Assembly (NCBI GenBank): GCA_964187785.1
Contig: OZ076409.1
Location: 62,994,001-63,058,000 of the forward strand
Length of the DNA: 64,000 nucleotides
Source of the DNA: Amphiscolops sp. MND2022
Lineage: Eukaryota
Reading direction: 5' to 3'
Within the stretch, counting starts at the first letter, position 1; each line of letters opens with the position of its first letter. Shown here one piece after another: positions 27,701 to 56,820 of this stretch. Both the position numbers and the translations under genes were made by a program. The notes beneath the pieces were generated by a model. It saw only the letters and a program-made list of their open reading frames with translations, was not told the origin of the DNA and ran no database searches.

Positions 27701-29078
27701 ATTTTTCTGAAAATAATCAATGAGGAAACGTAGAAGCTTGCAATAACAAGCCTTCATTGTCGATATGGAAAAAATTTGAATAAAAATCGGTTTCTATACA
27801 CTTTGAGTTGCGGGCTTGAAATGAACCTTCGACTTGGAATCAATCAGATAATTCCTCTGATCGTTTTTTGAAAAGTAATTCCAAATTTATTCAGCATGTA
27901 AGATTTTGAGTTATACTATTCCGATGACTCCGAATGAACAAACTGCTGCACAAAACCAGAAAACTTTGTTTGAGTTTTTTCTCCCGATTGTCATGAAAGC
28001 TGGAAAGCGTTTTACTACAGAGGAGACGGAGGTTCGAATCTTATCTGTTTCGATGTTTCATTTATTTCCAAAGTCCGAAAACAGCACGCTATATCCGAGT
28101 TTTTGACGTTATACCCGAAGTAAATCGCGTTTTACTAAGGAGGATGTAGCTTCGGATATTATCAGTTTTGATGCTTCGTTTCCTTCCAAAATCGAAAGAA
28201 AAGCACACTATATCTGATTTTATTTGATCTTGAATCCGAAGTAGTTGAGGTTTCTGGTGCGAATGAAAGCAAAAAGTCTCTTAGGCCCAGAAATCCAAAA
28301 TTGCGAGTTTTCCGGAAGGGCCCTCCCTCCCTTTTAAATTTTAACAGTATTTGCTTTCTTCTGTTTTCTTTCTTCTGACAAGTAGTTTTCGAGACGATTT
28401 TGATAAACTTCAAAAACTTCCAACATTGCCCAAAAATACGAAATGATGAAATTGTTGATAATTCGATTCATTTCCAAAGCAAAAACTACAGTTGTAAGTC
28501 ATCAGAACACGATAACATTTTCCTTTGGAGATTTTTTCCACAATTGTCGATTTGAAGTTTTCAATGTTTTGGCCAACAATAATGTCTGTCCTTCACGTGC
28601 TCGCACTCCGCCGCAAGACACCAGTGACCACCAGGTGCAGGAATTTTGGTAGTTTAATCTCATTTCCACCGGTTACCACTGGTGGCCGACTGGAGACGAC
28701 AGGTGAAATGGTTTCAAAAAATTTCAAAACTGGCTTTGCTGATATGCTTGGCTTTTTGAACTTTACTTGTCGACGTTTCTTAGTTTTCATGGTATAGAAA
28801 CATTTAATCATTGGTTTCTAAAGATTTATTGTTCGTTTTTGAGAATTACTATAAAGACCCCGCTTGCATTAAATTCGCTTTTCAGCACCACTTGAAAGGT
28901 TGACTTTTGAGAAAAAAGGATTAGAGAGGTATTTGATGCAACAGTGAAACTTTTACCCAAAAACTTTCAAAAGAATCCCCCTTTGGTTTTTTGGTACTTT
29001 CAGTTTTAAAAAATGTTTTTAAGCCCAATTGGCTCCCTATAAATTTTGGAGTACTGTCGCACGCATGGGTGAAATTAG

Positions 29079-29084
29079 TTTATT
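29079..29084 (-). terminator. Predicted polyadenylation signal AATAAA in the 3' LTR
   Basis: The only minus-strand AATAAA I found in the LTR, about 25 nt from the LTR end. Confidence 0.5.
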
Positions 29085-29694
29085 AGTTTTAATCTGTCAA
29101 GTCCTTGTTTGCATTTTACAAGGTACTATCTCGCGACGGTTCTGTTATTGATTTATCAAGTATAAGTCCCAACAAATAAATTAGCAACTTACTGATAAAG
29201 GGGTGCCTTGCGTGTACGTGCGAACAAAAGAAATTGCGTGAGTCGCGCAAGGCGGTGTTTGTAAATGAGCTTCCCGTTTACTGAAAATGTATGGTGAATA
29301 AATATGTTTAATTACGAATGAGTTGAGAATATTGAAAGTGAACAATTTCTGGACATAGCAATATTTCCTTCAATTGTTACAAATCTCAGATTAATAAAGA
29401 TTACAACTTCACTTTACAAGAAGTAATATAACTTTTACAATTTATCATTTAAGAAAATGAAACTATTTACAAATAATAAGAATTTCCCTTTTTCTTCGGA
29501 AATCTTTTTCTCAAACAAAGATTACAAATCCGTACTATTTTAAACGGAAGAGTTTTGATTTAGATGTCTCTATTCAGTAGAAAGTTGAATAGCATTAAGA
29601 CTTTTTCATAATATGACACTTTAAAACTTCAATCATCCCTTTTCTTATGTGAGTTTATGTAATTTCAACCTCATAGAAATTTAGTTCTAATAAG

Positions 29695-29907
29695 AATAGT
29701 CTAAGCTAAAGTTTGGTCAACCGCAGAATTGAAATCAGCGGAAAATAATCTAAGGTAAGATTTTGTCAACCGCAGAATTGAAATCAGCGGAAAATAGTCT
29801 AAATTAAGATTTTGTCAACCGCAGAATTGAAATCAGCGGAAAATAGTCTAAGTTAAGGTTTTGGAAACCGCCGAGTTTAAATCAGCGGAAAATAGTCTAA
29901 GTTAAAG
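29695..29907. repeat. 49-bp tandem repeat (about 4.3 copies) inside the 3' LTR
   Basis: ccgc cores at 29721, 29770, 29819 and 29868 (period 49). Confidence 0.9.
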
Positions 29908-30684
29908 TCTCAGAGAGAATGAAATCTCTACTGAAAGGTCTAAATAGTCAGACTCACCAAACCGGAGACGAAATTGAAGAGAAATTTCTAAGTTAGAAAT
30001 TTCTTGTAAGGGAAGATTGGTTCTGGAAGTTGAAGTTAAATCAAGGATGAGTGGAGAAATATTCTAAGATGCAAGGGTATGATTAAAAGAGAATTATTGG
30101 ATCTGAGTTATTAAGCAAGAAGTTTTGTTGAGTTAAATAGCAATCGGAATTGAAAGTGAAGGCGAGAAATAGACTTTCTAAGTCTGAAGGGGAAGATAAT
30201 AGTAAAGGGAGAGGAAAGGGGGTAAAGTAAGAAAGAAGAGCAGGGGTGAGGGGAGAGAAGTGGAAGAGAAGTGAAGAGAAACGAGAGCTATTAAGTTTAA
30301 GCTCTGTCCGTTTCGATAAGTGTATGTGTGAATGAATCTCCTCGCCTGCGTTGGCCGTATATATACAGCCAAGCATTTCTTATCGTGCGCTGCGTAGCAG
30401 GCATGGCTTATCTTTCACCAATCATAGTTGGTTTCATATTTCAAATATACGCGGTATAATATAGAATTCTTCACTTGTGCAATTCCTTTCTCGTCACAGT
30501 ACTTCGTCATCATTATTACCATCGTTATGGCCGCCGCCTTATGACCGCCATCTTTATCTACAACTCTCTCTCCCATAAACAAACGTTAGTTCTAGTTCAT
30601 GTTTGTTTCTGTATTTGTTAGTTAAATATAGACTGCACTTTAGCACCTAATTATGTTTGTTAAAGCGTTAGTCATAACGCGACA

Positions 30685-30696
30685 GCTCACCCCCCT
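30685..30696 (-). promoter_or_regulatory. Polypurine tract of element 1 (AGGGGGGTGAGC)
   Basis: G-rich tract directly abutting the 3' LTR start on the minus strand. Confidence 0.8.
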
Positions 30697-30721
30697 GGCA
30701 GGATGAAAGAAAATAAATGAG

Positions 30722-31660
30722 TTATGGGTCAGACTGAAAGAAGGGGGAGTTATGTAGCGCGAGTGACTGAGGGGAAGGTTCCTTAAATTTGATTCTAAAT
30801 ATTATAGAGTCATTGTTTAGGAATGCTTCTCTGAAGTTGACAAGTAACTTCGTATGAGGGATGAAGTCTTCTTTGAGGAGGTTCGGGTGCGTGTAGAGAT
30901 TGTGAAGGGTATCTTCGTGGTTGTGGGGGTTGATTGGGAAAAGTGCGGACCACTTGTTGCCTTCGTCCTTCTGATCAAGGAATTCGACTTCTACTGTTTT
31001 ATCAAAGGGCCATGTTTGTGGGTGAGTGAAGTCGCTATAATGAAGTTCACAGCTAATAGAAGAGTGGGTCCCACGGAAGATGTTTATCCCGTAAGGGAAT
31101 ATTCTGAAGGAAATTTTGCAGCCTGATAGGTATGTTGGGTAAATAGGGCTCGCGAAGCTGTTTTTGATGTTGTGAAAGGGATCGTCTGGAGAGGTCCTTG
31201 CTTTTCGGTAAAGTGTGGAGAAGGCGGAAACTTGCCAAGTGATAAAATCTTTACCGTTCGCTTCAATCTGGCTCGCTCGGTTGAGGAGGGAGCTTTGGTG
31301 TTTGATTGTCGCTCGCAAATCGAAGATAGTGACTTCCAATTGTTGACGTTTATCTCGTGCCTCTTCGATTGAGGTACATAGCAGTTTGATTCGGTTTTCT
31401 AACTTCTTTTGGGGTTGATTAATGTCCGTTAAAGGGAAGGACTTTCGGAGCGGTGTGCTTTTTGTTCCCTGGTTATAGGTACTAGTTGATTTCTCCCATT
31501 CACTAATCCACATATTTAGTCTTTCCACTCCTTCGAGGTTTGCATGTTCTTCTTGATCGTTTTCTTCAGGCATAGGTGGCCAGTCGGGGTTAGGGATCGG
31601 TAGGTAGGGTTTGTGTTTTGGGATGAAGGGGGTGGCATTTGGGTTTAATTTTTGGCTCAT
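30722..31660 (-). CDS. PAM2 motif + coiled coil + TRAF-type MATH domain protein (312 aa), RING-less TRAF-like
   Basis: N-terminal KLNPNATPFIP matches PAM2; heptad region; ITWQV..F, SPIY..GCKISFRIFPYG..RGTHSSI, WPFDKTV..LDQ, FIPH..L and FLNNDSIIFR match TRAF-C motifs. Confidence 0.88.
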   Translation of the reverse strand: MSQKLNPNATPFIPKHKPYLPIPNPDWPPMPEENDQEEHANLEGVERLNMWISEWEKSTSTYNQGTKSTPLRKSFPLTDINQPQKKLENRIKLLCTSIEEARDKRQQLEVTIFDLRATIKHQSSLLNRASQIEANGKDFITWQVSAFSTLYRKARTSPDDPFHNIKNSFASPIYPTYLSGCKISFRIFPYGINIFRGTHSSISCELHYSDFTHPQTWPFDKTVEVEFLDQKDEGNKWSALFPINPHNHEDTLHNLYTHPNLLKEDFIPHTKLLVNFREAFLNNDSIIFRIKFKEPSPQSLALHNSPFFQSDP

Positions 31661-32238
31661 TGTGCAGATATGGATCTTAAGGGAACTGTCAGCCGCTGTC
31701 CCTTCAGTGCAGGGTTCTCAATAGTGTATTCTTGTCTTTTGTTGTCCCAAAAGACGATTTTCCAGGTTGAAAACTGTGGGAGTAGAGAATACTTTAGGTT
31801 TGCGTTAAACCTAGGTTTTTTAACGTATCTGGCTTTTCTAGTGAAGTATTCCCTTTTATGTTGCTTATGTAAGGGTGCTTCATCGGCTATCTCGTTGTTC
31901 CATTCATGATAGTGTTTTTGTGGTGTGTTTCTTCTGATGTCCTTTCCACCAAATCTAGGAGGATGTTGTGTTGACGGGATTGGTGGTATGTCTCCTGTGA
32001 ATGACAAAGGAAAGGGGAGTTGGTCGGATGGCGTTGGTGTGAAGGTTGGAGTTGGAGATTTTGAGGGTGATGATGGGACCGTTGAGTCAGGGGGGTCGGG
32101 AAGGAAGGTAATTGTTGTAGACGAGTCTGGTGTCAAAAAGTCTGAAGGAGATAGGGGTTCGATTTCTAGGTCACTTTCTGGGATAGGATCCAGGGTATCG
32201 TCGTCCAGGCTTGGTAGGTCGAATAGTGGTTCTAGATT
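31657..32238 (-). CDS. ATG-less ORF/exon (193 codons; acidic Pro/Ser/Thr-rich, then basic region), probably spliced to the env N-terminus
   Basis: The frame opens immediately after tttacttttAG (32239); it contains no ATG; its stop overlaps the next ATG (ATGA). Confidence 0.65.
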   Translation of the reverse strand, partial: NLEPLFDLPSLDDDTLDPIPESDLEIEPLSPSDFLTPDSSTTITFLPDPPDSTVPSSPSKSPTPTFTPTPSDQLPFPLSFTGDIPPIPSTQHPPRFGGKDIRRNTPQKHYHEWNNEIADEAPLHKQHKREYFTRKARYVKKPRFNANLKYSLLPQFSTWKIVFWDNKRQEYTIENPALKGQRLTVPLRSISAQ

Positions 32239-32284
32239 CTAAAAGTAAACTAATGAATGAATGAACTTGAAAATGTTTTTGGCT

Positions 32285-34432
32285 TTATATTGGAGCTACG
32301 AAGCTCTGTACTGAGGGATAAAGTGATTCTTCCTTATTCTTCAGTGCTTGGAGTTCTACTTCTTTTCCATTATCTTCAGTTTTCGCGTTTTTATCTTCAA
32401 CGCTATCCTCGTAAGGGGCCCGCGGGGTGAATACAGAAGTTAAAACTGAAGTAAAGAAAAGATTGTACGAAGCACTGAGCAATGTTTTAGTGAAGCTCAG
32501 TGTATTACCTGTGAGGTGACGAAGTTCAAAGTATCGGAAGACGAGTACCGTGATATCTATTACGAACTTAATGAAAAGAAAGGCGCCAAAATACGCGCCG
32601 CAGAGTTCTAGTACGTAAGATATACTTCCAAATGTTTCAAGGAACTGATTTTTGAAGTAATCGGGTGAGATCATGCCGTCAACATAAAAATCTGTACGGG
32701 GTGCATAATACGCGAAAGATTCAGGTCCACTATGGGCCATTGAGGGTGTGATGAGCTCACGTGAGAACTTCTGGAGGGCGTTGCGAGACGCTGCGCTGAT
32801 GAGGATGTTGTCCCAAAATTCTGAGAGTTGTTTAGGCGTATACATTCCCGCGTCTTGTGAACCAGGGAAGGATCTAGTAATCATTGGTTGTATGTCTTTG
32901 GGTCCGAAGATAGCAGGTCGGTCGCGATGTTCGGGTGAAGGAGTGAGGGTAAACCAGGAGTCTTTGTCTTCCATATCCAATTGAAAGAGGTTCTTAATGC
33001 GATCGCTGCAATTTTGGGCGTTCGCGTTAGGATAGGTCTGTCGGGTGATTGGGTCCACGAAGGCAACCACTCCTTTGTAGAAGATGGGTATGCGGTCGTA
33101 GCATCGGTTCATCGTGTGAAGAGGTGAGTGGGATTCCGGGCAGTGGTAGAGCCAAGCGAGGCTGCCATCTGTGTTCAGGAACATTGAGCGATTTCCCGTG
33201 AGCATGTATCCGGCGAGGCGAGGATTTTCCACTGATAGCATCAAAATAGTAAGGATTTGAGTTCTTTCTTGTTCGCATTGTGCTTTGAGGAGCTGGATTT
33301 CTGAAGCTTCGAGGAGACGAGTGCTCTCAAAGAAGAGATAATCAAGCTTTGTCCCTTGGTGTAACTCGTAATCCATGTTGAGGTAATGAGGTGTATTAGG
33401 GTTGGGGTCGCTCGGGCCTCGAAAGAGGTGGAGTCGGCCATTACCAGAACCATCTTCGGGTGAATAATATTGTAGTTTAGATGTCTCTCCCATGGAGATG
33501 CCGAGTCGTCTGCCGGACGTCATGTCGAAGCCACCAAGTTGGATTGAAACGTACAGGGATTCGTAGTTGGTCGGGTATACATCGTCTGGTTTGTTGCAAT
33601 ACTTTTGTGGTCTGTTGTAGACTTCGAATAAAAATTTGGTAGTGGAGTCGTTGCCGCTTACGATATAGTAGTTAGATCCGTGTTTGATCATGTTCACGAT
33701 TTCTTTCCTATGTACTGCAAGCACGCAATTATCGGGTTCCGCCCATGTGTAGGCGTATGGGTCCAGTGACGTCGTTTCGCAACCTAGTTGTTCTAAGGGG
33801 CAGGGAAGGACCATCTGAAACGGAGTCAGGACTTTTCCATCTCGAGTTTTTACTGATAATTCAGCATCTTGGATGTGAGATTCGAATGTTTCTCTTTTGA
33901 TCCAGCCACCTGTCTTGCATTCATTTCGGGTATCTGGGTCGCGTACACCGTCCCAACCCTTTCCGTATTTGGCGTTTCTCGTCTGTACTTGTTTCACTCC
34001 TTTCTTAAATTTGAGGGGTTGTCCATGGATTATGACTTCTTTGCCTTCACCCATTGCCTTGCAGGTTTCGGGTGACAGGGAAAGATCGCTGGTGATTCCG
34101 TCGTGTAGGATTGACATACTGGAGTGGTCGTGATAACCACAATGCCATTCTTCACTCTGATGTTTCACACGGCACATAGTGGCGTTGATAGTGCGGCGGA
34201 AATGTTTAGTGTATAACGTTACGCTCGCACGACTTACCTCTAAGTTTTCAGGTGCCACATTGCATTGTTCAACTTGATTCAATGCGTAGAGTTTATTTTG
34301 GGTCATTTCGCCGCAGTCGAAATGAGTTACTCGCAGTTTTTTAGCAACGCTAGCGAGGTTTGGCGTTGGACGTTGTAATATCACAACGGGCGCGTAATGG
34401 GCGCATAAAAAGAGTAAGTAAAATAATTTCAT
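32285..34432 (-). CDS. env: Env-like fusion glycoprotein (715 aa), chuvirus/Jingchuvirales glycoprotein-like
   Basis: N-terminal signal peptide; Cys pattern HFDC..ALNQVEQC..CRVK..WHCGYHDH..PETC; C-terminal transmembrane segment (CGAYFGAFLFIKFVIDITVLVF); splice acceptor TTTCAG 2 nt before the ATG. Confidence 0.85.
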   Translation of the reverse strand: MKLFYLLFLCAHYAPVVILQRPTPNLASVAKKLRVTHFDCGEMTQNKLYALNQVEQCNVAPENLEVSRASVTLYTKHFRRTINATMCRVKHQSEEWHCGYHDHSSMSILHDGITSDLSLSPETCKAMGEGKEVIIHGQPLKFKKGVKQVQTRNAKYGKGWDGVRDPDTRNECKTGGWIKRETFESHIQDAELSVKTRDGKVLTPFQMVLPCPLEQLGCETTSLDPYAYTWAEPDNCVLAVHRKEIVNMIKHGSNYYIVSGNDSTTKFLFEVYNRPQKYCNKPDDVYPTNYESLYVSIQLGGFDMTSGRRLGISMGETSKLQYYSPEDGSGNGRLHLFRGPSDPNPNTPHYLNMDYELHQGTKLDYLFFESTRLLEASEIQLLKAQCEQERTQILTILMLSVENPRLAGYMLTGNRSMFLNTDGSLAWLYHCPESHSPLHTMNRCYDRIPIFYKGVVAFVDPITRQTYPNANAQNCSDRIKNLFQLDMEDKDSWFTLTPSPEHRDRPAIFGPKDIQPMITRSFPGSQDAGMYTPKQLSEFWDNILISAASRNALQKFSRELITPSMAHSGPESFAYYAPRTDFYVDGMISPDYFKNQFLETFGSISYVLELCGAYFGAFLFIKFVIDITVLVFRYFELRHLTGNTLSFTKTLLSASYNLFFTSVLTSVFTPRAPYEDSVEDKNAKTEDNGKEVELQALKNKEESLYPSVQSFVAPI

Positions 34433-34500
34433 TTCTGAAATTCTTCAGTCTTTGACAATCAATCAGGAAAAATGTTTTTTATAGATATGTGGATCCACGG

Positions 34501-34934
34501 TAAGGCCGTAAAAAGGCAAGCCGTAATATCAAACCGGCAGCTTAGCTGGCACGACACTAAGCGGAGGTTAAAATTTTATAGTAGTAACCTCACTACTATT
34601 GGAAAGTGCCTTATGGAAAGATTGTTGTTTTTTGTTTAAAGTATAGGTTTCGGAGTAAGGCCGTAAAAAGGCAAGCCGTAATATCAAACCGGCAGCTTAG
34701 CTGGTACAACACTAAGCGGAGGTTAAAATTTTATAGTAGTAACCTCACTACTGTTCACACGTACCTAAGAGAAGGAGAAGTTTATTTGTCTTTTAGTTTA
34801 GTTTAATGTTATGGATCCTGAAATAAGGCCGTAAAAAGGCAAGCCGTAATATCAAACCGGCAGCTTAGCTGGCACGACACTAAGCGGAGGTTAAAATTTT
34901 ATAGTAGTAACCTCACTACTATTCAAAGAGTGCC
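34501..34934. ncRNA. Three tandem copies of a 97-nt structured RNA motif (cores 34501-34597, 34656-34752, 34824-34920)
   Basis: Near-identical cores separated by divergent linkers; three hairpins, an H-type pseudoknot and a covarying loop-to-flank pairing. Confidence 0.7.
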
Positions 34935-34980
34935 CGAAGAAAAATAGTAAAAGAAACTAACTTCAACCATCTGTGAAGGT

Positions 34981-35325
34981 TCAGCTGTAGTTATCACTGA
35001 TTGATTTTAGACTGGGAGAGTGTTTGTTACGTCTCTGGGCGTCGAGGAAATCGATTAACTTGCTGAGGAGATGAAGGGTCAGAGGGTGAACGTGATCTAA
35101 GTAAGCGATCTCCCTGTAGTCGGTTAGCGCCTTCGCAAGATCTGCTGCTTCTGTCGAGTCTGTGGCGACAGGGATGAGCCAATGTCCCGTTTGATGTGGT
35201 CGGAGGCTGTGGAGTTCAATCTGAAGTGCGGGGGCGCTCTCTTTCCAGGCTATAGAGAGGATCTCAAGAAGTGTGTTTGTTTCCGGGTGACGCCAGAGAA
35301 ATTTGAGTTGTATTTTAAACATCAT
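34981..35325 (-). CDS. Accessory ORF D (114 aa), small-protein family
   Basis: ATGATG start overlaps the last codons of ORF C; motif pattern shared with A and C. Confidence 0.7.
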   Translation of the reverse strand: MMFKIQLKFLWRHPETNTLLEILSIAWKESAPALQIELHSLRPHQTGHWLIPVATDSTEAADLAKALTDYREIAYLDHVHPLTLHLLSKLIDFLDAQRRNKHSPSLKSISDNYS

Positions 35326-35710
35326 AGGTCTCAACTAGGGTGTGAAGATATTTTATTCTAACCTCTTCTTCAAAGGGGTTAGTTACTAGAGTGATATCCA
35401 TAAAATAAACCAAGTCGTCGAAAGCCTTGTCTTTAAGGACGGCGGGGTGTTGGAGTATGTATTGTTGGAACGATAGGAATAGGTAGGCGTATTCCTTGGA
35501 CCCGAAGTGAATAGGGAAGAGGACTAGTGCTTCTTTGTCTTCTGGTGTGAGTATACGGACTTGTATCGCCGAGGTAGTGATCTCGTAAAAGATTGAGTGT
35601 ATTTCGTATTCACCCGTGAGTTGTATGGGTTTCCAAGGAACCGGAGGTTGAAATTGAGTGTGGAAGTAGTACTTATTTCCTCGAAATACAGCAACTGCGG
35701 GAGAGGACAT
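35315..35710 (-). CDS. Accessory ORF C (131 aa), small-protein family
   Basis: TAATG stop-start overlap with ORF B; motif pattern shared with A and D. Confidence 0.72.
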   Translation of the reverse strand: MSSPAVAVFRGNKYYFHTQFQPPVPWKPIQLTGEYEIHSIFYEITTSAIQVRILTPEDKEALVLFPIHFGSKEYAYLFLSFQQYILQHPAVLKDKAFDDLVYFMDITLVTNPFEEEVRIKYLHTLVETYDV

Positions 35711-35931
35711 TAAAGGACTGACTTGGCTCTTGTGAAGACTTCGGTAGGTGTGTTATTATATAGTAGACTCTCCAGTAGTGGGTAGATAGGTGATGCTGGC
35801 ACACACGTGTAGGTTTCACTCTCTTCTTCTGCGATTGCGTAGGCTTGTATGATTATGTTCGGTGTTGAGGGTTCCTTCTGAATATCAGTTATCTGGGAAA
35901 GTCGGTTGTCAATTTTGAATATTATGATCAT
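35710..35931 (-). CDS. Accessory ORF B (73 aa), small-protein family
   Basis: Start overlaps the stop of a 14-codon uORF (ATGA); stop overlaps the ORF C start (TAATG). Confidence 0.6.
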   Translation of the reverse strand: MIIIFKIDNRLSQITDIQKEPSTPNIIIQAYAIAEEESETYTCVPASPIYPLLESLLYNNTPTEVFTRAKSVL

Positions 35932-36172
35932 CGGTGAGCTGTTATGCCTTGTGGCGTGTGTGCATCAAACATAGCAAATCTGAGAATGGAATCATCAGTT
36001 ATTTCATTGCGTTTTTGGGGGTATTTGTAGAGGAGAGAGGATTACGACTTCATGAGTCGTCGTAGTAAACTAGACAAATGTCCGGGTAGGATATTATATT
36101 TTATATCTGATGACTAAGTTGAATAGTGATACATATATGGTTGACTTTAATCAATAATTATAAACATTTTGC

Positions 36173-36868
36173 ATGACTTTAAATAAATCAAATTTGTATT
36201 TAGGGATGAGCAACAACGACAACAACAACTATAGCGACTATTACGAAGAATCCTCGACCGATGAGGAGACTACTGCTCCAGGGTCTGTGTCGGGCACTGC
36301 CGCTACCTCTTTGCCGCCACAATCGTCGTCGTCAGCTGGGCCGTCCTCGTCGAGCGGAGCGCGCACCAGTTCTTCTGCTCCCGCGTCATCAGGTTCTCAG
36401 GCAGGGACCTCTGGGGGTGGGTCTTTTGTGGCGTTTGTGGCCCCGAGGACTAGTGGCCCTTTTCCGCAAGCTCCCTCTACCATCTCGCAGGGTGTTTTGG
36501 AGAGCCCTGGGGATCAAAGTTTTATGGGTTTATTTACCCATAGGGATATCGACCGCCTAGAAAACTGGGCTTCATTAACTAGTTCCCTTCAGGGTACCCC
36601 CGGGTTTTCTGTTTCTGGTCCTCCCGGTCCAAATGCTCTAACTAGTTTCTTGCGGGCTAACTGGGGGGCCCGTTGGGAGCAGACTCTCCTGTCCTCTCTC
36701 GGCGAAATAGTCGTCTTCCAGCTGCGAGCCTACATAAGTGGCTACTCGCAGCTGACTAGTTTTGAGAGGGGTCAGTGGACCCGCCTCTATTCATTGTGGA
36801 CAATGGGGGAGCGGGCGGCTCAGCTGCGGCGACTTGCAGAGAAGGGAGGTTTCCTGGAAATTGAGTAG
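36173..36868 (+). CDS. Antisense accessory ORF (220-231 aa; acidic, Ser/Gly-rich N-terminus, helical Trp-rich C-terminus)
   Basis: Long GC-rich ORF opposite to element sense, occupying its own segment with no listed ORF on the other strand; likely ATG at 36206, just after tttag. Confidence 0.72.
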   Translation: MTLNKSNLYLGMSNNDNNNYSDYYEESSTDEETTAPGSVSGTAATSLPPQSSSSAGPSSSSGARTSSSAPASSGSQAGTSGGGSFVAFVAPRTSGPFPQAPSTISQGVLESPGDQSFMGLFTHRDIDRLENWASLTSSLQGTPGFSVSGPPGPNALTSFLRANWGARWEQTLLSSLGEIVVFQLRAYISGYSQLTSFERGQWTRLYSLWTMGERAAQLRRLAEKGGFLEIE

Positions 36869-37033
36869 GCATTATTGCCTCTCATCTCCAGGAAATACTT
36901 TATTTTTCTACGCTTTTGTGTTTGCTGCTTTTCGTAAGTTCCTTCTCGGGGTTGCACAAATTGTATAGGTAAAAAGTCTAATAATAATAATAAGAATAAT
37001 GATAATATTTTTCGAATAAGCGGTAATATCCGG

Positions 37034-37420
37034 CTAGGAGCTAGGCGAGGAGATAGTAGAACAGCAGAATAAGTCTTTTTGTGTGTTAGGTAATGAAGGT
37101 TGTAGGTCAGGTATCAGGGTAGGCATGTAGGATAGTAGTTCCTCTAGGATAGGGTCATGGTGGGTGACGGCATAATAGGCTAAGTGTTGATATAAGCGGG
37201 CGAAAGTAGGTGATTCTGGGTGTATATGAAGGTTAGATTTTCTAGGCGTAGGTTGTTTATGTGGGCTAGGATCTGGGTCGTTGGAGTAGAAACAAATTCT
37301 AACTATTTTGTTTTTGTAGGTCCAGTAGATTTTAGTAATCGTAACCTGCAGAATTCCTAAGGACTGGAGTTCTCGCGGGACTTGCCAAGGCAAGTTTAGA
37401 TAGACTTTATGGCACGGCAT
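37034..37420 (-). CDS. Accessory ORF A (128 aa), unknown small-protein family
   Basis: ATG 7 nt after the pol C-terminal stop; motif pattern shared with ORFs B-D. Confidence 0.7.
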   Translation of the reverse strand: MPCHKVYLNLPWQVPRELQSLGILQVTITKIYWTYKNKIVRICFYSNDPDPSPHKQPTPRKSNLHIHPESPTFARLYQHLAYYAVTHHDPILEELLSYMPTLIPDLQPSLPNTQKDLFCCSTISSPSS

Positions 37421-37427
37421 AGTAAGG

Positions 37428-38246
37428 TTATTCTTTGTAACCAATTCTAGTCCTTTCACGAAGTATGGACTGTCGTGCTGGTTGATTGGGTTGTGCTCGC
37501 TGATAACGTGGATTTCTCTCTATTTGGCGGGCAACAGCCTTTCGTAACTCTTGCAAGGGAGTCGTTGACTTGGTAGACGATGCCGGGGTGTTAGTTGGGG
37601 GTGCTGGAGTTGGTTGACGTTGAGTTAACGTCAGGATAGGGGTTGCTGCGTTTTGAAGAGGTGATGTCGAAGGCTGATCGGGAGTCTTGGGAGTTGACAA
37701 CAACTGATTTTCTGGAGAGATGATACCAGAGTCTGTGCTCTGGGGGGTTTGCGTTCTTTTGCGGGCAAGTATTTGGTTTTGTTGATTCCGTACTGGCAAT
37801 ATGCAGAGGTCTCCGAGTTTTTGTGGTTCTGAAACATTAAGTTGTTCAATTCTTCCTTTGACAAGATTGTTATAAAAATCCGTGTCTCCACGGTGGGGAG
37901 TAGTGTATTCTTCGATAAGAGGGGGGAGTGTTTCTTCTTTAGGAAAGTATTCTATTAGATGGTTCCTATGTACAGTTCGGAGATTCTCGGGGTTTTGATC
38001 TTCCATTATTTGGTAAGTTGTATTTGTAATTCGTTTGGTAACCGTAAAGGGTCCTAGTCGCAGTTGTTGGAGTTTTTGGCTTTTGGAGAGGTCTTTTCGA
38101 TGGTTCTCTAGCAGAACCTTTTGTCCAATGTTGAGGTGGTTCCCAAGTTTAAATCTGTTCCTGTAGGCGTGTGATTGAGCTGTTTGTTTTCTGCACTTTT
38201 CATATGTGGATGAGTAGACCTTTTTGAAGGCTGTTTCTCGTTCCAA
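37428..38246 (-). CDS. Integrase C-terminal region (GPY/F motif) plus Pro/Thr-rich tail, split from pol by a 1-nt frameshift near 38250
   Basis: IGQKVLL...LGPFTVTKRITNTTYQI...TVHRNHL is the typical gypsy integrase C-terminus; it overlaps the end of the pol ORF in the -1 frame. Confidence 0.88.
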   Translation of the reverse strand: MERETAFKKVYSSTYEKCRKQTAQSHAYRNRFKLGNHLNIGQKVLLENHRKDLSKSQKLQQLRLGPFTVTKRITNTTYQIMEDQNPENLRTVHRNHLIEYFPKEETLPPLIEEYTTPHRGDTDFYNNLVKGRIEQLNVSEPQKLGDLCILPVRNQQNQILARKRTQTPQSTDSGIISPENQLLSTPKTPDQPSTSPLQNAATPILTLTQRQPTPAPPTNTPASSTKSTTPLQELRKAVARQIERNPRYQRAQPNQPARQSILRERTRIGYKE

Positions 38247-41200
38247 TAAGTTTGTGATAGTTGTGGTCGTAATAGTCCATTTAGTAGTTCGTTTTTGACT
38301 TGGTTTTCGCTATGGCAATGAGGAGGTAATCCTTGACAGAATTGTGATTTGCAGTTCTTGTTTTTGTTCCTGTAGAGTCCCAGCTTCAGACTCATAGGTA
38401 TCTGTGGTTTATTGCAAAACACTATCTCGTAGGGGGTCTTTCCAGTCGTGTAGTTGACGCTTGTGTTGTGGGCGAATGCAAATTTGGCAGCTAGTTGGGC
38501 CCAGTTGTTTCCTGATTCGTTTAGGAAGTTTCTCCAGTATCTTGCAATGTGTTGATTTTGAGTTTCTACTTTGCCATTTGTCCAGGGTGAGTGTGCGGTT
38601 CTTGGTCGAAGTGTAATGCCAAACTCTTTAGTCCAATTGACGAATTCAGTGTTCACGAAAGCTGTTCCTCTATCATGTACGATAGATTGAGGGATGCCAT
38701 AGTGCATAATCCATTTTTCCATCGCATTGATTGTAGATTGTGCTCCTGTGTCTCTGACTGGGTATGCCATCAGGTAACGTGAGAAGGCGTCGATGATCAG
38801 AAGGCAATGTGAATTTCCACGACTGGGAGGATTGAGTGGTCCTTTGTGATCAATGTGGATGGTTCTGAATACTTGAGTTTCGGTTTCGCAGTCTTCCAGT
38901 GGGACTTCGTTGTTTCTCCGTTGTTTGGATTTGTTAGATTGGCAGCTAACACAATCTTGTGTGAGGGCACAGATCCAGTTGTGCATCCCTGGCCAGTAGT
39001 AAAATCTCTTAGCATTGAGGAAGGTCTTTTCTGCTCCCATGTGGCCGCCGAGGTCGTTGTAATGTCCCATACGAAAGCAAGCTAAAAATAGAGAGAGAGG
39101 TAGACAGATTCTCAGATTCTCGTCTGTTGGGTCATCAGTTGGCTCGTTATAACAAAGGAGGTTTCCTTGGCCTTCTATAGATAATCTGTCGAATTCCTGA
39201 AAGTAACGCATGAGGCCTTTTGAGTGTTGTAACTCTGGTGATTTTGGTTCGGGTTTGTTTCCTGTTCTTACCCATTGTCGGACCACGCTGAGTACCGGGT
39301 CATTTATTTGTTCTTGTAAGATCGTTGTAACGTTTAGTTCTACTTCTTTGGATAGTTTATCAAGTTGTCTGACAAGTTCCTGTGTTGGTGTCTTTTGTTT
39401 TTCAGTTGAATTTGTAGGTAGATCGAGGTGTTCTATTGCCTTCGCGTTTTTGGGAAGACTTGGGTTACGTGCGATGGGATCTTCTGTGTTGAGCTCGTAG
39501 TTGGTCTCGTTTATTTCTTGACTCTGATTGTCTGTGAGGGCTTCGTCATCCGTATCACTGTTGATGGAGCTGTAAGTGTTTTGTGATAAATCCGAAGTGC
39601 TATCCCGTGTTCCTGACCTGATTCTTAGTTCTTCGAATTTTCCAAGTTCTCTTCCAGCGTCGAGGCAACTCTGTGCTGACTCTACTTTCGGCAGGTTAGG
39701 TTCCTCGTAGATAGAGTTAACTGTGAAGTTATTCCCATCATTTTGGAGATGAAGTACTTTCCGTTTTTTTCCCTTCTCGTACAAGATGGGGTAAAAGTCG
39801 TTCTTGGATGTCTCTTCATTTTCTTCGTGTTTGATTTTGTAGTGTACTTGGGTTCCATGTTCGTCGAAAAAGTGTATGTCAGTTGGGATGACTTTGTGAC
39901 TGAGTTGATGTTTCTTGTGTTCCTCGATGGAGACGTTTCGACTGAGTATATCAGGGAAGGCTAGGTTGCTTCCTGGAGTCCAAATTATCTTGAGATTCGG
40001 GAATTTAGATATAATTACTTGGTACCTGAAAAAACGGGGTGAAATTTGTCCCTTTCTTCCCCAGAGATAAAGAATCGGCTTGTGATCGCAGTATAGGTAG
40101 ATGGGGAAGGGAGATCCGATGATGTAGTGTTCATACGTCTGAAGAGCTGAGACTATGCCACATAATTCTCTGTGTAGTGTGGACATCTTTTGTTCTTCCT
40201 TTGCGAAAACTCTTGAGTTGAAGGAAATGATCCGTTTCCCTTCTGGGAATTGTTGGATGAGGATACATCCTGTCCCAACGTTTGACGAGTCGACGTGTAT
40301 GTGAAAGGGGTATTTTGTCGAGGGTATTGCGAGCACTGTGTCTTCGGTAATTTTTTTCTTTATTTCCTGGAAAAGGTCTTCGTGTTCTTGGTTCCAGCAA
40401 AAATTTGTATCTTTCTTGGTGAGTTCGTAAAAAGGTCGACTATCGACATGAAGATTCTTGATGTAGCAGCTATAGAAGCCCAAAGCTCCTAAGAAGCTTT
40501 TCACTTCGGTTTTGGTCTTTGGTGATTTGAGATTGTGTAGGTCTTTTACTCGTTTTGCGACGGGTTGTATTCCTTCGGCTGCTATCACGTGTCCCAAAAA
40601 CTTGACTTTCCTTAAGAAGAAGAGTGTCTTATCTGGTGCTGCCTTGAGTCCGGCTTTCCGCAGTAAGTTATGGTATTCTTGAATTACCGTGAACATTTCT
40701 TGTTTGTTTTTGGCTTGCATCAACGTGTCGTCGATGTATGTAATTGCCTGTTTCCTTTTGATGAGGGGTTCGAAGTGGATAGTCATCATTCTGCTAAAGA
40801 AGCTTGGTAATCCCTTGAGTCCATAGAATCCCCTGGTGAAGGTGTATTGTTTTCCGCCAATGATGAAGCTGGTGAGTTTTTGCGTGGGCTCGTCTAATGG
40901 GACTTGGTGAAATGCACAGGAGAGATCACTTACTGAGAAGATGTTTCCATTTATTAGTGTCATTATGGTTTGGATCGGTTCTAAGGGCCAGGAATAATTT
41001 GTTAGATCTGTCACCGAGTTTAGATATCTCGCATCTATGATCAGCTTGACATAGTCATGTTTTGGTTGTAGTATAATAGGATTCACAAATAAGGATCCCA
41101 TTTCTTCATCGTCGCCCATTTCTCTGATGATATCAGCGTCTTTGAGTTGTGTGAGTAGCTTCTCTAGCTTTTCTCGTAGGTGAAGTGGTACTTTGCTGGG

Positions 41201-42937
41201 TCTCTGTCTCTTTAGAATTGCTCCAGGTTCTAGTTTAATGTTAAATTTTTGTCTGGTTTTCCCTACGTCAAATTTGTGTTGGGAGTATACATCTCTTGCG
41301 TCCATTAGTAAGTCTATTAGGAGAACCAGTTCTTCGTCTGTGAGGTCTGAGTAGCGAAAGTCGAATTCTTTAATGTATCGCACTGCTTCTTTATTTTGAT
41401 ACTGAAGGTAGTACTCGATCAGTCGTTCGTTGTCTTCTTTTGGCCTGAAGATTTTAAATTGCTCATCGCAGGGTGGTTGACAGGACTTTGCGTCGCTTGT
41501 GAAGTCTGTCTCCAGCTCTCTATGTTTGAGATGAAATTGCTCGGAAAATTGTTGTATCTCATCTTCTAGTACGTATTCGGGGTCTCCTCTTGTAGTCATG
41601 GCATAGACATCTAGTTCGTTTCTTGTATAAATTCGGAGTTGTATTTCTGAGTATGCAAATACGTCTTGAATGAGTTGAGTGACGTCTTGCCATTGGAAGT
41701 CTTCTAGCTCTGAGGCTTCCCGTAGCATGGATATAGTTTTGATGCCGCTCATTTTGGCGTGTGCTTTTAGAGTTTCGAGAGATTGAACTAGTAATTGTGG
41801 GTCAATCTTGTCTTTTGATTTTGCTTTCGTAATCAGAACATATATAAATCGTTTCAGAGTTTCGTCCCAGTAGGGTATGGTTTCTCCTTTCTGTGGTTTC
41901 TGTTTTGCGCATGTATCCTTAAGTGAAGGTATTTTCGTTAGGATTTCTTTTGAGAAGCCTTTGGCTGGCTTTAGGTCGGCCGGGACGAAGATGATGATAG
42001 GGTCTGGTCTGCTGAGTATTGTTTTCGAGTTTCCTCCTTCTATTCTGAGGCAATCGTTCATATCTTGTGAAGGAATGGTAGAGTGTAATAGGAAACAGTC
42101 GTTGTATTCTTCGTTTTCGTTTAGGATAGCATATGCGAGTTCTGTCGGGTTTCTAATTTGGTATTTCGGAATTTCTTGGTCTAATACGTCAAGCATTGAG
42201 TATCCGATAGTTCCTTTTACTAAGGTGATTGTATGGTTTTTGTTGTTTTCCATGACGATTGGTAAAGTCTTCTCAAATCGTGTACAGAGGACATTTATGA
42301 AGTTAAGTCCAGTAGAAACTGCCTTCCTGTTCGGTAGGAACGTAGATCCAGGAGGAAATGAGTTATTAGTGTTTTCCGGTGCGAATTTGTAACATCTTGT
42401 CGTCTTTGGTTCGATATACATTGAGTGAGGAATTCGGACTGAGAGAATTTGTGATAGATAGGGGTAACATTTGTTGAGTTGTAGGCTACCATAGCAAAAA
42501 GTATTTATAGGTCTTTTGAGTTCTATGCCAGGAAGATCAAAGTGTATTTTGTTAACTTGTTCTTGGCAGAAATTCATTCCAAGGAGGTTTTGGGTTTTCA
42601 TCTCTGTTATCCAGACTGTTAATGGGAAGTTATGTTGTCCATCGGAATCGTAGTAGAGTTTGAGGGTGATGTATCCCATCATAGGGATGATCTGCCCAGA
42701 GTAATTCCGTGTTGTGTTATTGCTTCTACTAAGTTCTAGGTCTTGTTGAAACTGGCAAAGTTCTCTAAAGGTCCTGTAGTTGATGATTGAAGATGTTGCC
42801 CCAGTGTCTAGTAGAAATTCGATTTCTAAGCCACTATCTTTTTGTGAGTCTCCGGCAGCAAAATAATAAAGATTAAGACTAAATTTTAGAGGGGCACTGC
42901 TGCTATTTCTATTTTTCGGAGACCTTAGTAGTTTAAA
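38108..42937 (-). CDS. pol: Pol polyprotein: aspartic protease, macrodomain, RT, RNase H, integrase (entered by frameshift)
   Basis: FLLDTGA (upstream of the listed ATG) and LLGMNF protease; DLSCAFHQV, FYGLKG and YIDD RT; IHVDSS, HRELCGI and YCDHKPI RNase H; H-H-C-C (GHY..GGH..CVSC) and IHIDH / IVHDRG / NGKVE integrase. Confidence 0.96.
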   Translation of the reverse strand, partial: FKLLRSPKNRNSSSAPLKFSLNLYYFAAGDSQKDSGLEIEFLLDTGATSSIINYRTFRELCQFQQDLELSRSNNTTRNYSGQIIPMMGYITLKLYYDSDGQHNFPLTVWITEMKTQNLLGMNFCQEQVNKIHFDLPGIELKRPINTFCYGSLQLNKCYPYLSQILSVRIPHSMYIEPKTTRCYKFAPENTNNSFPPGSTFLPNRKAVSTGLNFINVLCTRFEKTLPIVMENNKNHTITLVKGTIGYSMLDVLDQEIPKYQIRNPTELAYAILNENEEYNDCFLLHSTIPSQDMNDCLRIEGGNSKTILSRPDPIIIFVPADLKPAKGFSKEILTKIPSLKDTCAKQKPQKGETIPYWDETLKRFIYVLITKAKSKDKIDPQLLVQSLETLKAHAKMSGIKTISMLREASELEDFQWQDVTQLIQDVFAYSEIQLRIYTRNELDVYAMTTRGDPEYVLEDEIQQFSEQFHLKHRELETDFTSDAKSCQPPCDEQFKIFRPKEDNERLIEYYLQYQNKEAVRYIKEFDFRYSDLTDEELVLLIDLLMDARDVYSQHKFDVGKTRQKFNIKLEPGAILKRQRPSKVPLHLREKLEKLLTQLKDADIIREMGDDEEMGSLFVNPIILQPKHDYVKLIIDARYLNSVTDLTNYSWPLEPIQTIMTLINGNIFSVSDLSCAFHQVPLDEPTQKLTSFIIGGKQYTFTRGFYGLKGLPSFFSRMMTIHFEPLIKRKQAITYIDDTLMQAKNKQEMFTVIQEYHNLLRKAGLKAAPDKTLFFLRKVKFLGHVIAAEGIQPVAKRVKDLHNLKSPKTKTEVKSFLGALGFYSCYIKNLHVDSRPFYELTKKDTNFCWNQEHEDLFQEIKKKITEDTVLAIPSTKYPFHIHVDSSNVGTGCILIQQFPEGKRIISFNSRVFAKEEQKMSTLHRELCGIVSALQTYEHYIIGSPFPIYLYCDHKPILYLWGRKGQISPRFFRYQVIISKFPNLKIIWTPGSNLAFPDILSRNVSIEEHKKHQLSHKVIPTDIHFFDEHGTQVHYKIKHEENEETSKNDFYPILYEKGKKRKVLHLQNDGNNFTVNSIYEEPNLPKVESAQSCLDAGRELGKFEELRIRSGTRDSTSDLSQNTYSSINSDTDDEALTDNQSQEINETNYELNTEDPIARNPSLPKNAKAIEHLDLPTNSTEKQKTPTQELVRQLDKLSKEVELNVTTILQEQINDPVLSVVRQWVRTGNKPEPKSPELQHSKGLMRYFQEFDRLSIEGQGNLLCYNEPTDDPTDENLRICLPLSLFLACFRMGHYNDLGGHMGAEKTFLNAKRFYYWPGMHNWICALTQDCVSCQSNKSKQRRNNEVPLEDCETETQVFRTIHIDHKGPLNPPSRGNSHCLLIIDAFSRYLMAYPVRDTGAQSTINAMEKWIMHYGIPQSIVHDRGTAFVNTEFVNWTKEFGITLRPRTAHSPWTNGKVETQNQHIARYWRNFLNESGNNWAQLAAKFAFAHNTSVNYTTGKTPYEIVFCNKPQIPMSLKLGLYRNKNKNCKSQFCQGLPPHCHSENQVKNELLNGLLRPQLSQTYWNEKQPSKRSTHPHMKSAENKQLNHTPTGTDLNLGTTSTLDKRFC
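42847..42937 (-). promoter_or_regulatory. Programmed -1 ribosomal frameshift signal (U UUA AAC + downstream stem)
   Basis: TTTAAAC at 42937-42931 is in the gag frame, one codon before the gag stop. The -1 frame is open through FLLDTGA into pol. Stems GGTCTCCG/CGGAGACT and GCAGCA/TGCTGC begin 6 nt downstream. Confidence 0.88.
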
Positions 42938-44379
42938 GGGCGGAAATCGGCAATAGAGTTCACCGAGTAGTCGGTTTCTAAGAACTGTACTGTGTTGGAT
43001 CTTCCTATGTCATTAGTTTTTGGGAATCTTTGCTCGTAAGATTGAGTTGGAGTGTTGGGTCTTTCGTTTCTGTCTAGTGGTCTTTGAAAAACTGAGTTAT
43101 TTCTTGGTGGAAGAGGTTGTATGTTGCGATTAAAGGAGCTAGACTGGTCTCTGTTGAAGTTGAACGGAGATCTTGCTCTTTGGGGTCCAGGGGAAACACT
43201 TCTGGAGTTGTTAGAATTGTTTAGGAAGGGTCTTCTCCCTTCTTGTGAAAATCTTTGGTTACCAGGATTGACTCTTGTATTCGTAGGTCGGCGTTCTGGG
43301 TTGAAATTTTTTCTTTGTGGTCTATCGTATTGATTCCAGGCAGGGTTTGACTGCATAGCTCCAGCCAGTGCTAGTTGATGTGCCACAGCCATATGTTTTC
43401 TGATTTCTGAATCTGGTAATCTTGGTTGAAATCTAGAGCCATGTTCAGGTCCAGTTCTCTTGTTGTAGTCGTTGGTGAATGTTATTCTTCTTTCTGGGTT
43501 AGCTTCGTTTTGAACCTTCTTCACTTCTTCATCTCTCATCTTCTTTCTGCACCAGTTAGGTGTGTGTCCATTTGTTCGGCAGTAGCCACAGAATCGTGTG
43601 GCCATTCTTCGACCTGTAGCATTAGGGTCTACAGTTTTCTCTACTGCGTTGATTGTGTTATTCATCTGTTCTTTGATTTGTAGTTTGATTCCCTTCAGGT
43701 CGTCTCGCATTTCTTGTATGAGTGGGTCTGAATGTGATTCTCCGCCAGTTAGGGCGGTAGTTACCGTGTAGGAGAGATCTTTGTTTATTATAGCTTGGGA
43801 GAATTGTTCCCAGGTTGCATTCGGGTGATCCATTAAATATTCGTGTGCCTTTTCTCTCAGTTTTGGAGGTCTTAGGCCTCTCAGTGAGTAGTCGATGCAC
43901 CTTTGTCTTCTTTGTCGGTCTTGTGCTGCTCTTTCTGCGTTTCTGTCGTTTTGTGCGACGCCGGCAAGATCATCTGGCCAGCCTTTCCCCACAACAATTT
44001 TGATTCTGTGTAGAAAATTCTTTATCTCTTCTCCATCTCTTCTGGTGACATGTTCTGCTTCCATTCTGTGTCTGAATTTATTTCGGCCATCTGCGAATCT
44101 TGTGATGAACCTTTCTCTGATTTCTTGCCAGGTGTTAGCGTCTGTGATACTTGTCTCGAACCACTCCGCTGCTGGTCCTCTTAGTAGTGTAGCAAAGTAG
44201 GATTTTCTCCTGAAGTTGTAGTCGTCAAGTGCTGCTCCGTTTGCTGGGGTATCACCATGAGAGAAACGGAACTTCTTTTCAATTAGCTGTATAAATTGTT
44301 CAGGATCTTGATCTGGGTCTGTTCCCGTGAATTGGTCTCTGCCGAGGTCTGGATAAGCCAAGTAATTTTGCGCAGCCAT
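42925..44379 (-). CDS. gag: Gag (484 aa) with capsid-like region and CCHC zinc knuckle
   Basis: LLRGPAAEWF...TWQEIRERFITRF capsid-like motif; CGYCRTNGHTPNWC = C-X2-C-X4-H-X4-C; first long ORF after the PBS. Confidence 0.93.
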   Translation of the reverse strand: MAAQNYLAYPDLGRDQFTGTDPDQDPEQFIQLIEKKFRFSHGDTPANGAALDDYNFRRKSYFATLLRGPAAEWFETSITDANTWQEIRERFITRFADGRNKFRHRMEAEHVTRRDGEEIKNFLHRIKIVVGKGWPDDLAGVAQNDRNAERAAQDRQRRQRCIDYSLRGLRPPKLREKAHEYLMDHPNATWEQFSQAIINKDLSYTVTTALTGGESHSDPLIQEMRDDLKGIKLQIKEQMNNTINAVEKTVDPNATGRRMATRFCGYCRTNGHTPNWCRKKMRDEEVKKVQNEANPERRITFTNDYNKRTGPEHGSRFQPRLPDSEIRKHMAVAHQLALAGAMQSNPAWNQYDRPQRKNFNPERRPTNTRVNPGNQRFSQEGRRPFLNNSNNSRSVSPGPQRARSPFNFNRDQSSSFNRNIQPLPPRNNSVFQRPLDRNERPNTPTQSYEQRFPKTNDIGRSNTVQFLETDYSVNSIADFRPLNY

Positions 44380-45395
44380 TGCGAGCTATTGAGATTATAA
44401 AGGATAGAAGATGAAGCAAAGAACAATAAGCCAAAGACTCTATGAGGTATGATACTCTTGGCTTTTGAGAATAACAGCAAAGAGTTAAAGTAAAAATTGT
44501 TTGTACTATGATTCTAATAGTGATAATTATTAGACAGGTCTGACAAATCATAAAATCCTTAATACGCTGCTAGCAAAAATGAAAATAGCACTTCTCGGTC
44601 GAAGTTAGGTTCATTTCCTATATTTCGTACTCTGATTCCACAGTTTAGGGGATACTTACAAATCCCAGTAGTGTTGAGATTATCGTAAAAAGGGTAGTTC
44701 GGGGTATACCAATCCTCCGAGTTAACCCAAAGAAAACCTATGAAGAGTACAGTCAGTCCACTAGGTCTTTCATCCGCTCGTTGAGCCTTTCTTTAACTTT
44801 AGGAAAATAACTACGGCTAGTTCACAGAGGGAGTTACTCTCGTCTTTAGGATTAAGTGCGTGGGGCCCAGATCACTATCATGCAATCACTTGGGTACTAT
44901 CACTAGAATACTAGGTTTCCCACTCGGAATGCTACATAGGTTCCAAGATACCCACTGGGCTCACGGCCTTCAAACAGCCTCCGAGGAGACCTAGGCGGGC
45001 TTTTACTTAATTTGTGTCCGTCCGGACTAGAGTGAATTTCCCAACTGTGCCTTTAAATAAAGCGTATAGAGTCAGTTTCATTCTTGTTTAGGACTGATGG
45101 TAATCTCATAGTATTTTCGTAAAGGTAAATCATTTCTAACAAATGGTTTTGGGGATTGAAAGAAAGAGAGTGGTGCATAAACTCTTCCCAAAGCTGTTAG
45201 GCTGGAGAGATTCTGTTAGAGTATTTACTAGCAGTTTTACGATTTATATAGATTAGAGAAGCCACATATTGAGGCAGTAGGAGAAAGAAGAAAATTAGAA
45301 GTAATGTTAAGAGAAATAAGTAAGTAACCCTTACTTCTGAGAGTAGGGATTCTAACAGATAGCTCATTTACTTCTCTATTACAAGAGAAAAAGTT

Positions 45396-45413
45396 GCCTC
45401 ACTGGTCGCACCA
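45396..45413 (-). promoter_or_regulatory. Primer-binding site of element 1 (TGGTGCGACCAGTGAGGC)
   Basis: Starts with TGG 3 nt after the 5' LTR. Its complement GCCTCAC-TGGTCGC-A-CCA has tRNA 3'-end architecture (T-stem CTCAC as in tRNA-Met(e) or Ile-UAU). The tRNA identity is unresolved. Confidence 0.85.
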
Positions 45414-46055
45414 GTTTGTCGCACGCATGGGTGAAATTAGTTTATTAGTTTTAATCTGTCAAGTCCTTGTTTGCATTTTACAAGGTACTATCTCGCGACG
45501 GTTCTGTTATTGATTTATCAAGTATAAGTCCCAACAAATAAATTAGCAACTTACTGATAAAGGGGTGCCTTGCGTGTACGTGCGAACAAAAGAAATTGCG
45601 TGAGTCGCGCAAGGCGGTGTTTGTAAATGAGCTTCCCGTTTACTGAAAATGTATGGTGAATAAATATGTTTAATTACGAATGAGTTGAGAATATTGAAAG
45701 TGAACAATTTCTGGACATAGCAATATTTCCTTCAATTGTTACAAATCTCAGATTAATAAAGATTACAACTTCACTTTACAAGAAGTAATATAACTTTTAC
45801 AATTTATCATTTAAGAAAATGAAACTATTTACAAATAATAAGAATTTCCCTTTTTCTTCGGAAATCTTTTTCTCAAACAAAGATTACAAATCCGTACTAT
45901 TTTAAACGGAAGAGTTTTGATTTAGATGTCTCTATTCAGTAGAAAGTTGAATAGCATTAAGACTTTTCATAATATGACACTTTAAAACTTCAATCATCCC
46001 TTTTCTTATGTGAGTTTATGTAATTTCAACCTCATAGAAATTTAGTTCTAATAAG

Positions 46056-46690: not shown

Positions 46691-46726
46691 GAATGAATCT
46701 CCTCGCCTGCGTTGGCCGTATATATA
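46691..46726 (-). promoter_or_regulatory. Predicted LTR core promoter: TATA box + initiator
   Basis: TATATATA (46726-46719) lies about 30 nt upstream of an Inr-consensus TCATTC (A at 46694) on the minus strand. Confidence 0.6.
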
Positions 46727-56808: not shown

Positions 56809-56820
56809 CTCTTCCCTTCT
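56809..56820 (-). promoter_or_regulatory. PPT of element 2 (AGAAGGGAAGAG)
   Basis: Pure purine 12-mer abutting the TG of the 3' LTR. Confidence 0.88.

Follow-up and report, generated by a model that had tools for sequence, protein, structure and literature searches.

A tandem array of three pseudoknotted RNA modules lies just 5′ of env in a young Ty3/gypsy element of the window (the whole stretch of 64,000 nucleotides of Amphiscolops sp. MND2022 DNA that was analysed), and its fold, its strand, its conservation and its retention under selection in a lineage with a dead env mark it, as far as sequence comparison reaches, as a conserved cis-acting RNA. With moderate confidence, we suggest that the array serves as a signal on the genomic RNA for nuclear export and/or packaging, similar to CTE, RRE, MTE or psi. 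The initial annotation had offered four functions, among which the export element now leads in the widened form of export/packaging, whereas the exoribonuclease-resistant RNA (xrRNA), the IRES and the ribozyme were not sustained, their testable defining features being absent and the conservation in the env-dead lineage being left unexplained by them.

The three 97-nt cores reported earlier were recovered at 34501-34597, 34656-34752 and 34824-34920, with copies 1 and 3 identical and copy 2 differing at two positions, and every stem listed for them was found. Three tandem copies is correct for the window element but is not a fixed number, as the elements harbor between one and five modules. On the minus strand, the 5′-most module in the sense direction (M1, the earlier copy 3) spans 34828-34934 by the module parse. 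Its outer parts are P1a (34934-34930) and P1b (34875-34871), the latter inside the P3 loop; its inner knot is made up of S1a (34920-34915), S2a (34914-34909), S1b (34908-34903), the loop L3 (34902-34893) and S2b (34892-34887); and its hairpins are P3 (34885-34880/34868-34863), P4 (34861-34843) and P5 (34840-34828). M2 (the earlier copy 2, 34660-34765, minus strand) carries the alternative P1 pair, with P1a at 34765-34761 and P1b at 34707-34703, and the env-proximal M3 (the earlier copy 1, 34505-34610, minus strand) leaves 72 nt between the end of its P5 and the env AUG. A total of 242 modules were parsed at 103 of 108 loci, two registers mis-set by the script being read by eye, and the DNA search of the 1.07-Gb genome assembly gave at least 112 matches, coming from 40 of the 140 candidates scored.

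The order along the sense strand is P1a, a linker, S1a, S2a, S1b, a 10-nt A/U loop, S2b, P3, P4 and P5. S1 and S2 form an H-type pseudoknot, P1b in the P3 loop pairs back over 5-6 nt to P1a 5′ of S1, the P4 loop is invariant and the P5 hairpin is optional; as modelled, each module is a nested double pseudoknot with hairpins. The double change noticed earlier between the copies, GGCAC/GTGCC versus GGTAC/GTACC, recurs genome-wide in 168 versus 36 modules, with only two mixed, and supports the long-range pairing around the pseudoknot that had been proposed. Two-sided changes were observed at 10 or more pair positions in P1 (one pair), S2 (four), P3 (three to four) and P4 (two) across three env lineages, including one metagenome contig, these being counts over few independent lineages, in which remoter homologues may be missed, and S1 and P5 had zero. 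A pair is broken in 45 of the 55 stem types found at a single locus, as expected from decay after insertion. Family B copies A and B lack the P5 hairpin and have one and two mismatches, respectively, in P3; the metagenome contig L098 likewise has no P5 and carries a single mismatch in each of S1, P3 and P4. The pseudoknot-free minimum free energy favours other pairings than the model, and the sense-strand folding of one module outperforms 198 of the 200 dinucleotide shuffles compared (z −2.84). Under mononucleotide shuffles the z is equal for both strands, so the folding energy does not decide the strand.

The strand was settled by other features. A clue in favour of the plus strand had been proposed at first, and it was overturned: the functional strand is the minus strand of the window, which is the sense strand of the element. 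The copy-2 A>G change, formerly taken as a G-U pair on the plus strand, occupies a non-conserved helix end; read in the sense direction, it is the Y of a YAG, the S1 AG being preceded by C at 94 loci, by T at 34 and by A at 2. Fixed one-sided changes amount to G-U pairs on the sense strand, in S2 at 13 loci and at 3 loci and in P5 at 41 loci, with some types of two to three loci, from old copies, having A-C instead of G-U. By standard pseudoknot geometry, the inner knot is feasible on the sense strand only. The plus-strand reading was rejected, since the fixed G-U pairs fall on the sense strand and the plus strand would give a zero-length minor-groove loop, and the structure descriptor returned three sense and no antisense matches in each of L034 and L042. 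The fixed wobbles and the loop geometry, taken as modelled, fit only the sense strand.

The array is carried by an 18-kb element on the minus strand (29055-47045), which reads as a young Ty3/gypsy element with a chuvirus-type env (by Pfam), which we take to belong to the gB-type env class. Its 5′ LTR (45417-47045) and 3′ LTR (29055-30684, with a polypurine tract just before it), both on the minus strand, differ by one gap over 1631 columns and are accompanied by a 4-bp target-site duplication. The primer-binding site (PBS; 45397-45413, minus strand) is identical in six of six other elements checked, from families A, B and two module-less families. The gag gene (42925-44379, minus strand) matches Retrotrans_gag and shows a CCHC knuckle by eye, and pol (PR-RT-RH-IN, 37428-43009, minus strand) has the C-terminal part of the integrase in a second frame in the window copy (~38100-38300). 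Downstream follow ORF A (37034-37420, minus strand), an accessory frame of 128 aa without a Pfam match, and an antisense ORF of 231 aa (36173-36868, plus strand), which is kept in the subfamilies and in family B and stands head-to-head with ORF B. ORFs B (35931-35710), C (35710-35315) and D (35325-34981), all on the minus strand, have overlapping stop and start codons, with the ORF D stop ~45 nt 5′ of M1. The env gene (32285-34432, minus strand) encodes 715 aa matching Pfam Monjiviricetes_fusion (E 8e-33) and contains a candidate phase-0 splice donor after codon 65 (34232-34240, minus strand). ORF E (31657-32238, minus strand) has no AUG at its start, which lies at a phase-0 acceptor-like site, and a basic C-terminal stretch, and its stop shares an AUGA overlap with the MATH-domain ORF (30722-31660, minus strand). 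The stretch 30722-37420 is unusually accessory-rich, with six sense ORFs besides env and three stop/start overlaps, and the AT-rich gap between the antisense ORF and ORF B is possibly a bidirectional internal promoter. Elsewhere in the window, at 55039-61930, a second pair of long direct repeats, ~5.1 kb apart and 95-100% identical, encloses an aspartyl-protease ORF (58503-59384), and is probably another LTR-type element.

The module was found 5′ of env in family A (the window type), in family B, in the decayed B-like copy L075 and in L098, the only one of four metagenome loci scanned that contained it. Compared with the window, env is 74% identical in family B and 48% in L098 (matched part only), with S1-P4 at 78-90% and 77%, respectively; between different subfamilies, the cores are 88-100% identical versus 53-79% for the spacers. 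The family B array has P1a only in the first copy and P1b only in the last, so that P1 would enclose the array as a whole; of six copy positions inspected in L042/L043, four (copies B and C) have no local 5′ P1 strand. The P3 loops of L042 copies A and B, otherwise different, share the same self-complementary 4-mer, a possible kissing interaction. In the same genome, the module is absent from two related env families (L044-L048 and L049-L050), which have other repeats at that site. The first of these harbors repeats with periods of 76 and 147 nt and small hairpins 450 nt 5′ of env, and a 51-nt tandem array farther upstream. The second (the P0017 family; L049:2130-2930 and L050) carries AUG-free hairpin repeats with strong acceptor-like sites before env; env sequence follows in all 30 of the arrays of this type fetched, and the array may be a second, unrelated cis element. 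No module match was obtained from viral contigs with two patterns and one protein scan, a single match in the genome-contig collection was rejected as chance, and two env families known from proteins were not found in this genome.

A non-autonomous family, designated NA1, bears most directly on function. Its members of ~6.4-6.8 kb run from LTR to LTR through a short leader of only ~100-170 nt, ORF X, what is left of ORF D, the array and an env disrupted by deletion and frameshifting; they have no gag/pol, and their env frames span just 16-59 aa. The LTR pairs are at least 99.5% identical in 9 of the 13 copies fetched whole, and NA1 is, judging from its copies, an active and amplified non-autonomous family with a dead env. 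Sampling was carried out by a search with ORF X alone, by which 35 NA1-like and 5 distant loci were fetched. The array was kept in 34 of the 35 NA1-like loci, with one to three modules each, two of them being recombinants with an intact env 5′ part; the exception (L144) ends before the array, and the five distant loci had zero modules. This is retention by non-autonomous derivatives as expected of a packaging signal, seen in one lineage only. NA1 also retains a useless ~485 nt of env, so retention of the array alone proves little.

Variation within the copies is more telling. Among 23 own-lineage copies, obtained by leaving out nine with helper-type segments from a set of 32 that was limited to the short-deletion type, the ratio of inherited (in at least three copies) to private variants was 2/60 in the S1-P4 cores and 89/382 in the dead flanks (Fisher p ~0.001), with 2 inherited core changes seen against 14.8 expected, and across all 32 copies it was 8/67 and 174/481. 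A looser count (at least two copies, whole module) gave p 0.03 against the env remnant and no significant difference from two further flanks. Gene conversion confined to the cores, with helpers as donors, could produce the same pattern as selection in NA1. The commonest first-module type of NA1, however, occurred in NA1-derived loci alone, which makes recent conversion from the helpers sampled less likely. Both the arrays and the LTRs of NA1 are mosaics of helper subfamilies, suggesting that NA1 RNA has been co-packaged with helper RNA. Conservation in this env-dead family argues against a purely env-expression role (IRES, xrRNA or splice site) and against self-cleavage.

Some further observations concern derivative elements. 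The NA1 loci L107-L119 and L133-L167 have a MATH-like ORF X, LTR and array swaps with helper subfamilies and two nested env deletions. In a weak test, no multi-copy derivative without the module was seen among 44 exact LTR-PBS junction matches, and the four unassigned ones that were followed up are single rearranged copies. L120 (C11:40551000-40560900) and L124-L132 form 5.6-kb tandem units with an LTR, a 419-aa ORF, ORFs B-D and the array but no env; the 419-aa ORF is common to a tandem cluster on C10, an apparent capture of a host-cluster gene. These units were left out of the retention evidence, since they have no polypurine tract and appear to have been duplicated at the DNA level.

An export/packaging signal leads among the readings, since a lineage that replicates with a dead env has conserved the module. 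For elements of the CTE/RRE/MTE kind, which are needed in cis on intron-containing genomic RNA, the corresponding observation is this conservation in one env-dead replicating lineage. The invariant S1, L3 and P4 loop would offer a docking surface to a protein of the host or of the element, with the tandem copies adding avidity, giving a multivalent, structure-dependent platform for protein binding. Its job would be to commit intron-containing genomic RNA to nuclear export and/or to selection for packaging/dimerisation, which we regard as about equally probable. Packaging signals usually lie near the 5′ end, which counts against the packaging reading. Speculative partners are a Rec/Rem-like product of a spliced ORF E or the Gag nucleocapsid. 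ORF E starts at a phase-0 acceptor-like site in four of four lineages, and the env donor is of consensus type in 54 of 80 aligned loci, mostly of family A, being non-consensus in family B and absent in the module-less families. ORF E is thereby a candidate second exon of an accessory protein, and an intron that removes most of env and fuses codons 1-65 with ORF E in frame, as in Rec/Rem, is possible, with the N-terminal signal peptide complicating such a product. No Pfam family and no usable Atlas match was obtained for ORF E.

The env-proximal P3 loop (34542-34556, minus strand) is predicted to form 10 consecutive pairs, two of them G-U, with the primer-binding site (45405-45414), the best site in the 18-kb element, in a match noticed post hoc. 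The site being identical in all families, module-less ones too, this pairing carries no covariation signal. A more elaborate form of the export/packaging reading, which we consider quite unlikely as a whole, would be a two-part Rev/RRE-like or 3′-located packaging system, evolved independently in an invertebrate-type Ty3/gypsy element, in which the spliced ORF E product or Gag reads the array, the env-proximal loop docks on the primer-binding site much as the 3′ end of a tRNA does, and parasites hijack the system by swapping in a helper array.

A role in env translation is unlikely, though it accounts for several features of the site. The modules would recruit or retain 40S subunits on a B-C-D-env RNA, either by IRES-like landing and scanning or by reinitiation after ORF D. 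Here env would be the fourth cistron, ~550 nt past the ORF D stop, among neighbouring ORFs that have stop/start overlaps, and three lineages retain the position directly 5′ of env. Between the first module and the env AUG, seven related autonomous arrays, which are not independent, contain 1 AUG against 22.8 expected from dinucleotide shuffles, and the unrelated L049 repeat region has 0 against 8.2. This depletion suggests that the array is probably scanned in the env mRNA leader, however that mRNA arises; the array would then probably stand in that leader as well as on the genomic RNA, and the roles need not exclude each other. An AUG-free leader is, however, also expected from splicing or from an internal promoter, as in Tor elements (PMC4402516), the core is conserved in env-dead NA1, and the distance from the P4 end to the AUG varies (87 nt in the window, 38 nt in family B, 107 nt in L098). 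The geometry of TURBS, which lie upstream of a stop with the stop and start within ~20-30 nt (PMC10275272), is also not found, as the array comes after the ORF D stop.

Regulation of splicing, in which S1 would sequester the AG of a YAG acceptor at the module start and so balance spliced env mRNA against genomic RNA, has a low probability. The C or T before the S1 AG at nearly all loci, the mostly pyrimidine-rich linkers (strongly so in family B) and the predicted splicing at ORF E fit it; however, the M2-type linker is purine-rich (0.42 pyrimidine), no processed copy was found among six matches of a junction-sensitive pattern, and an env acceptor would serve no evident purpose in NA1. A role in RNA stability, by blocking an exoribonuclease to yield subgenomic env RNA or by shielding RNA from nonsense-mediated decay 3′ of a stop, seems similarly improbable. 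The arrangement of tandem pseudoknots 5′ of a structural gene is similar to that of intergenic xrRNAs (PMC12397905), and a stop codon precedes the array in autonomous and NA1 RNAs alike, but the three-way junction, the L2B loop and the AGY motif are all absent, the family B positions without a local 5′ P1 strand are hard to fit, and it is not evident what NA1 would gain from an xrRNA product. It is very improbable that the array has no function in NA1 or anywhere, with cores homogenised by template switching and carried along: the copy number of one to five and the common mosaic arrays would suit this, but not the compensatory changes across lineages, the NA1-specific type or the different fixed module types side by side in one array. 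A new class of self-cleaving ribozyme can be nearly dismissed, since, despite compact nested pseudoknots, invariant loops and ribozymes in other retroelements (PMC8501958, PMC4209133), no Rfam match was found up to E 10 and cleavage in mid-genome would destroy the genomic RNA, yet the core is conserved in NA1.

We conclude that this is a real and new RNA fold, with a function probably of a known kind. No Rfam 15 family matched the modules by covariance model at the gathering score, and the chance matches outside the modules were three at E 3.8-7.2 (window 33500-36000) and three at E 0.9-3.9 (L042, L098 and L049). To our knowledge, the cis signals for export and packaging that have been mapped come from vertebrate retroviruses and a small number of model retrotransposons, with hardly any from the env-carrying Ty3/gypsy elements of other animals. 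A search by title and abstract start, mostly outside subscription journals, found no description of such a module. With a compact core fold of ~80 nt, compensatory variants and a deletion series that both occur naturally, and a protein as candidate partner, the question of function is directly testable, and should the module instead be an IRES or an xrRNA, it would represent a new architecture for those classes.

In dicistrovirus IGR-type IRESs, the last pseudoknot directly precedes the first codon at a fixed distance, and this candidate was rejected on the P4-AUG distance of 38-107 nt. Known xrRNAs of classes 1-3 are alike in having pseudoknots and an intergenic site before a structural gene (PMC12397905). 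Class 1/2 flavivirus xrRNAs are defined by a three-way junction and a double pseudoknot forming a ring, and class 3 plant-virus xrRNAs by a P1/P2 stem-loop, an L2B loop, a J1/2 bulge and AGY in J1/3 (PMC12397905). Both were rejected: the helices here give an H-type knot nested in a loop-strand pseudoknot, and the S1 loop has 6 nt, fully used by S2, with AGY in L3 in no multi-locus type.

Psi and kissing loops are features of retroviral packaging and dimerisation, and the modules share loop-loop pairing with them, some P3 loops having palindromic 4-mers. In common with the core domains of LARDs, the array is a structured RNA kept by non-autonomous derivatives (PMC7215508). It differs from packaging signals in lying ~10 kb from the 5′ end and in its pseudoknotted tandem modules. 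Like the musD MTE, MPMV CTE, HIV RRE, HERV-K RcRE and SERV-K/MER11 CTE, it is structured and non-coding, measures ~400 nt and belongs to the 3′ half of an LTR element (PMC4588558, PMC11379458). Transport elements have tertiary folds, the musD MTE depending on a kissing interaction and a pseudoknot (PMC4588558), and retention through deletions is shared by them and the array (PMC4588558, PMC11379458). The array has no sequence or Rfam similarity to them, consists of one to five near-identical 100-nt modules before env rather than beside the 3′ LTR, and its export role is putative. In the Cer1 CERV of C. elegans, export of a Ty3/gypsy genomic RNA needs a protein from a spliced mRNA, and the text available on it names no cis RNA element (PMC10309623). 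ORF E resembles such a spliced second exon (PMC10309623), with its splicing predicted and no Pfam or Atlas match, and the env donor-ORF E arrangement is similar to Rec-type splicing (PMC11379458). The main texts on the Oikopleura Tor elements (PMC4402516) and on metazoan errantiviruses with gB-type env, where related elements are catalogued (PMC13524379), yielded no mention of such an RNA array on term searches. Both are gag-pol-env LTR elements like the one in the window, with env expressed from an internal promoter in Tor3b/4b (PMC4402516), while the window element is distinguished from them by six or more accessory ORFs.
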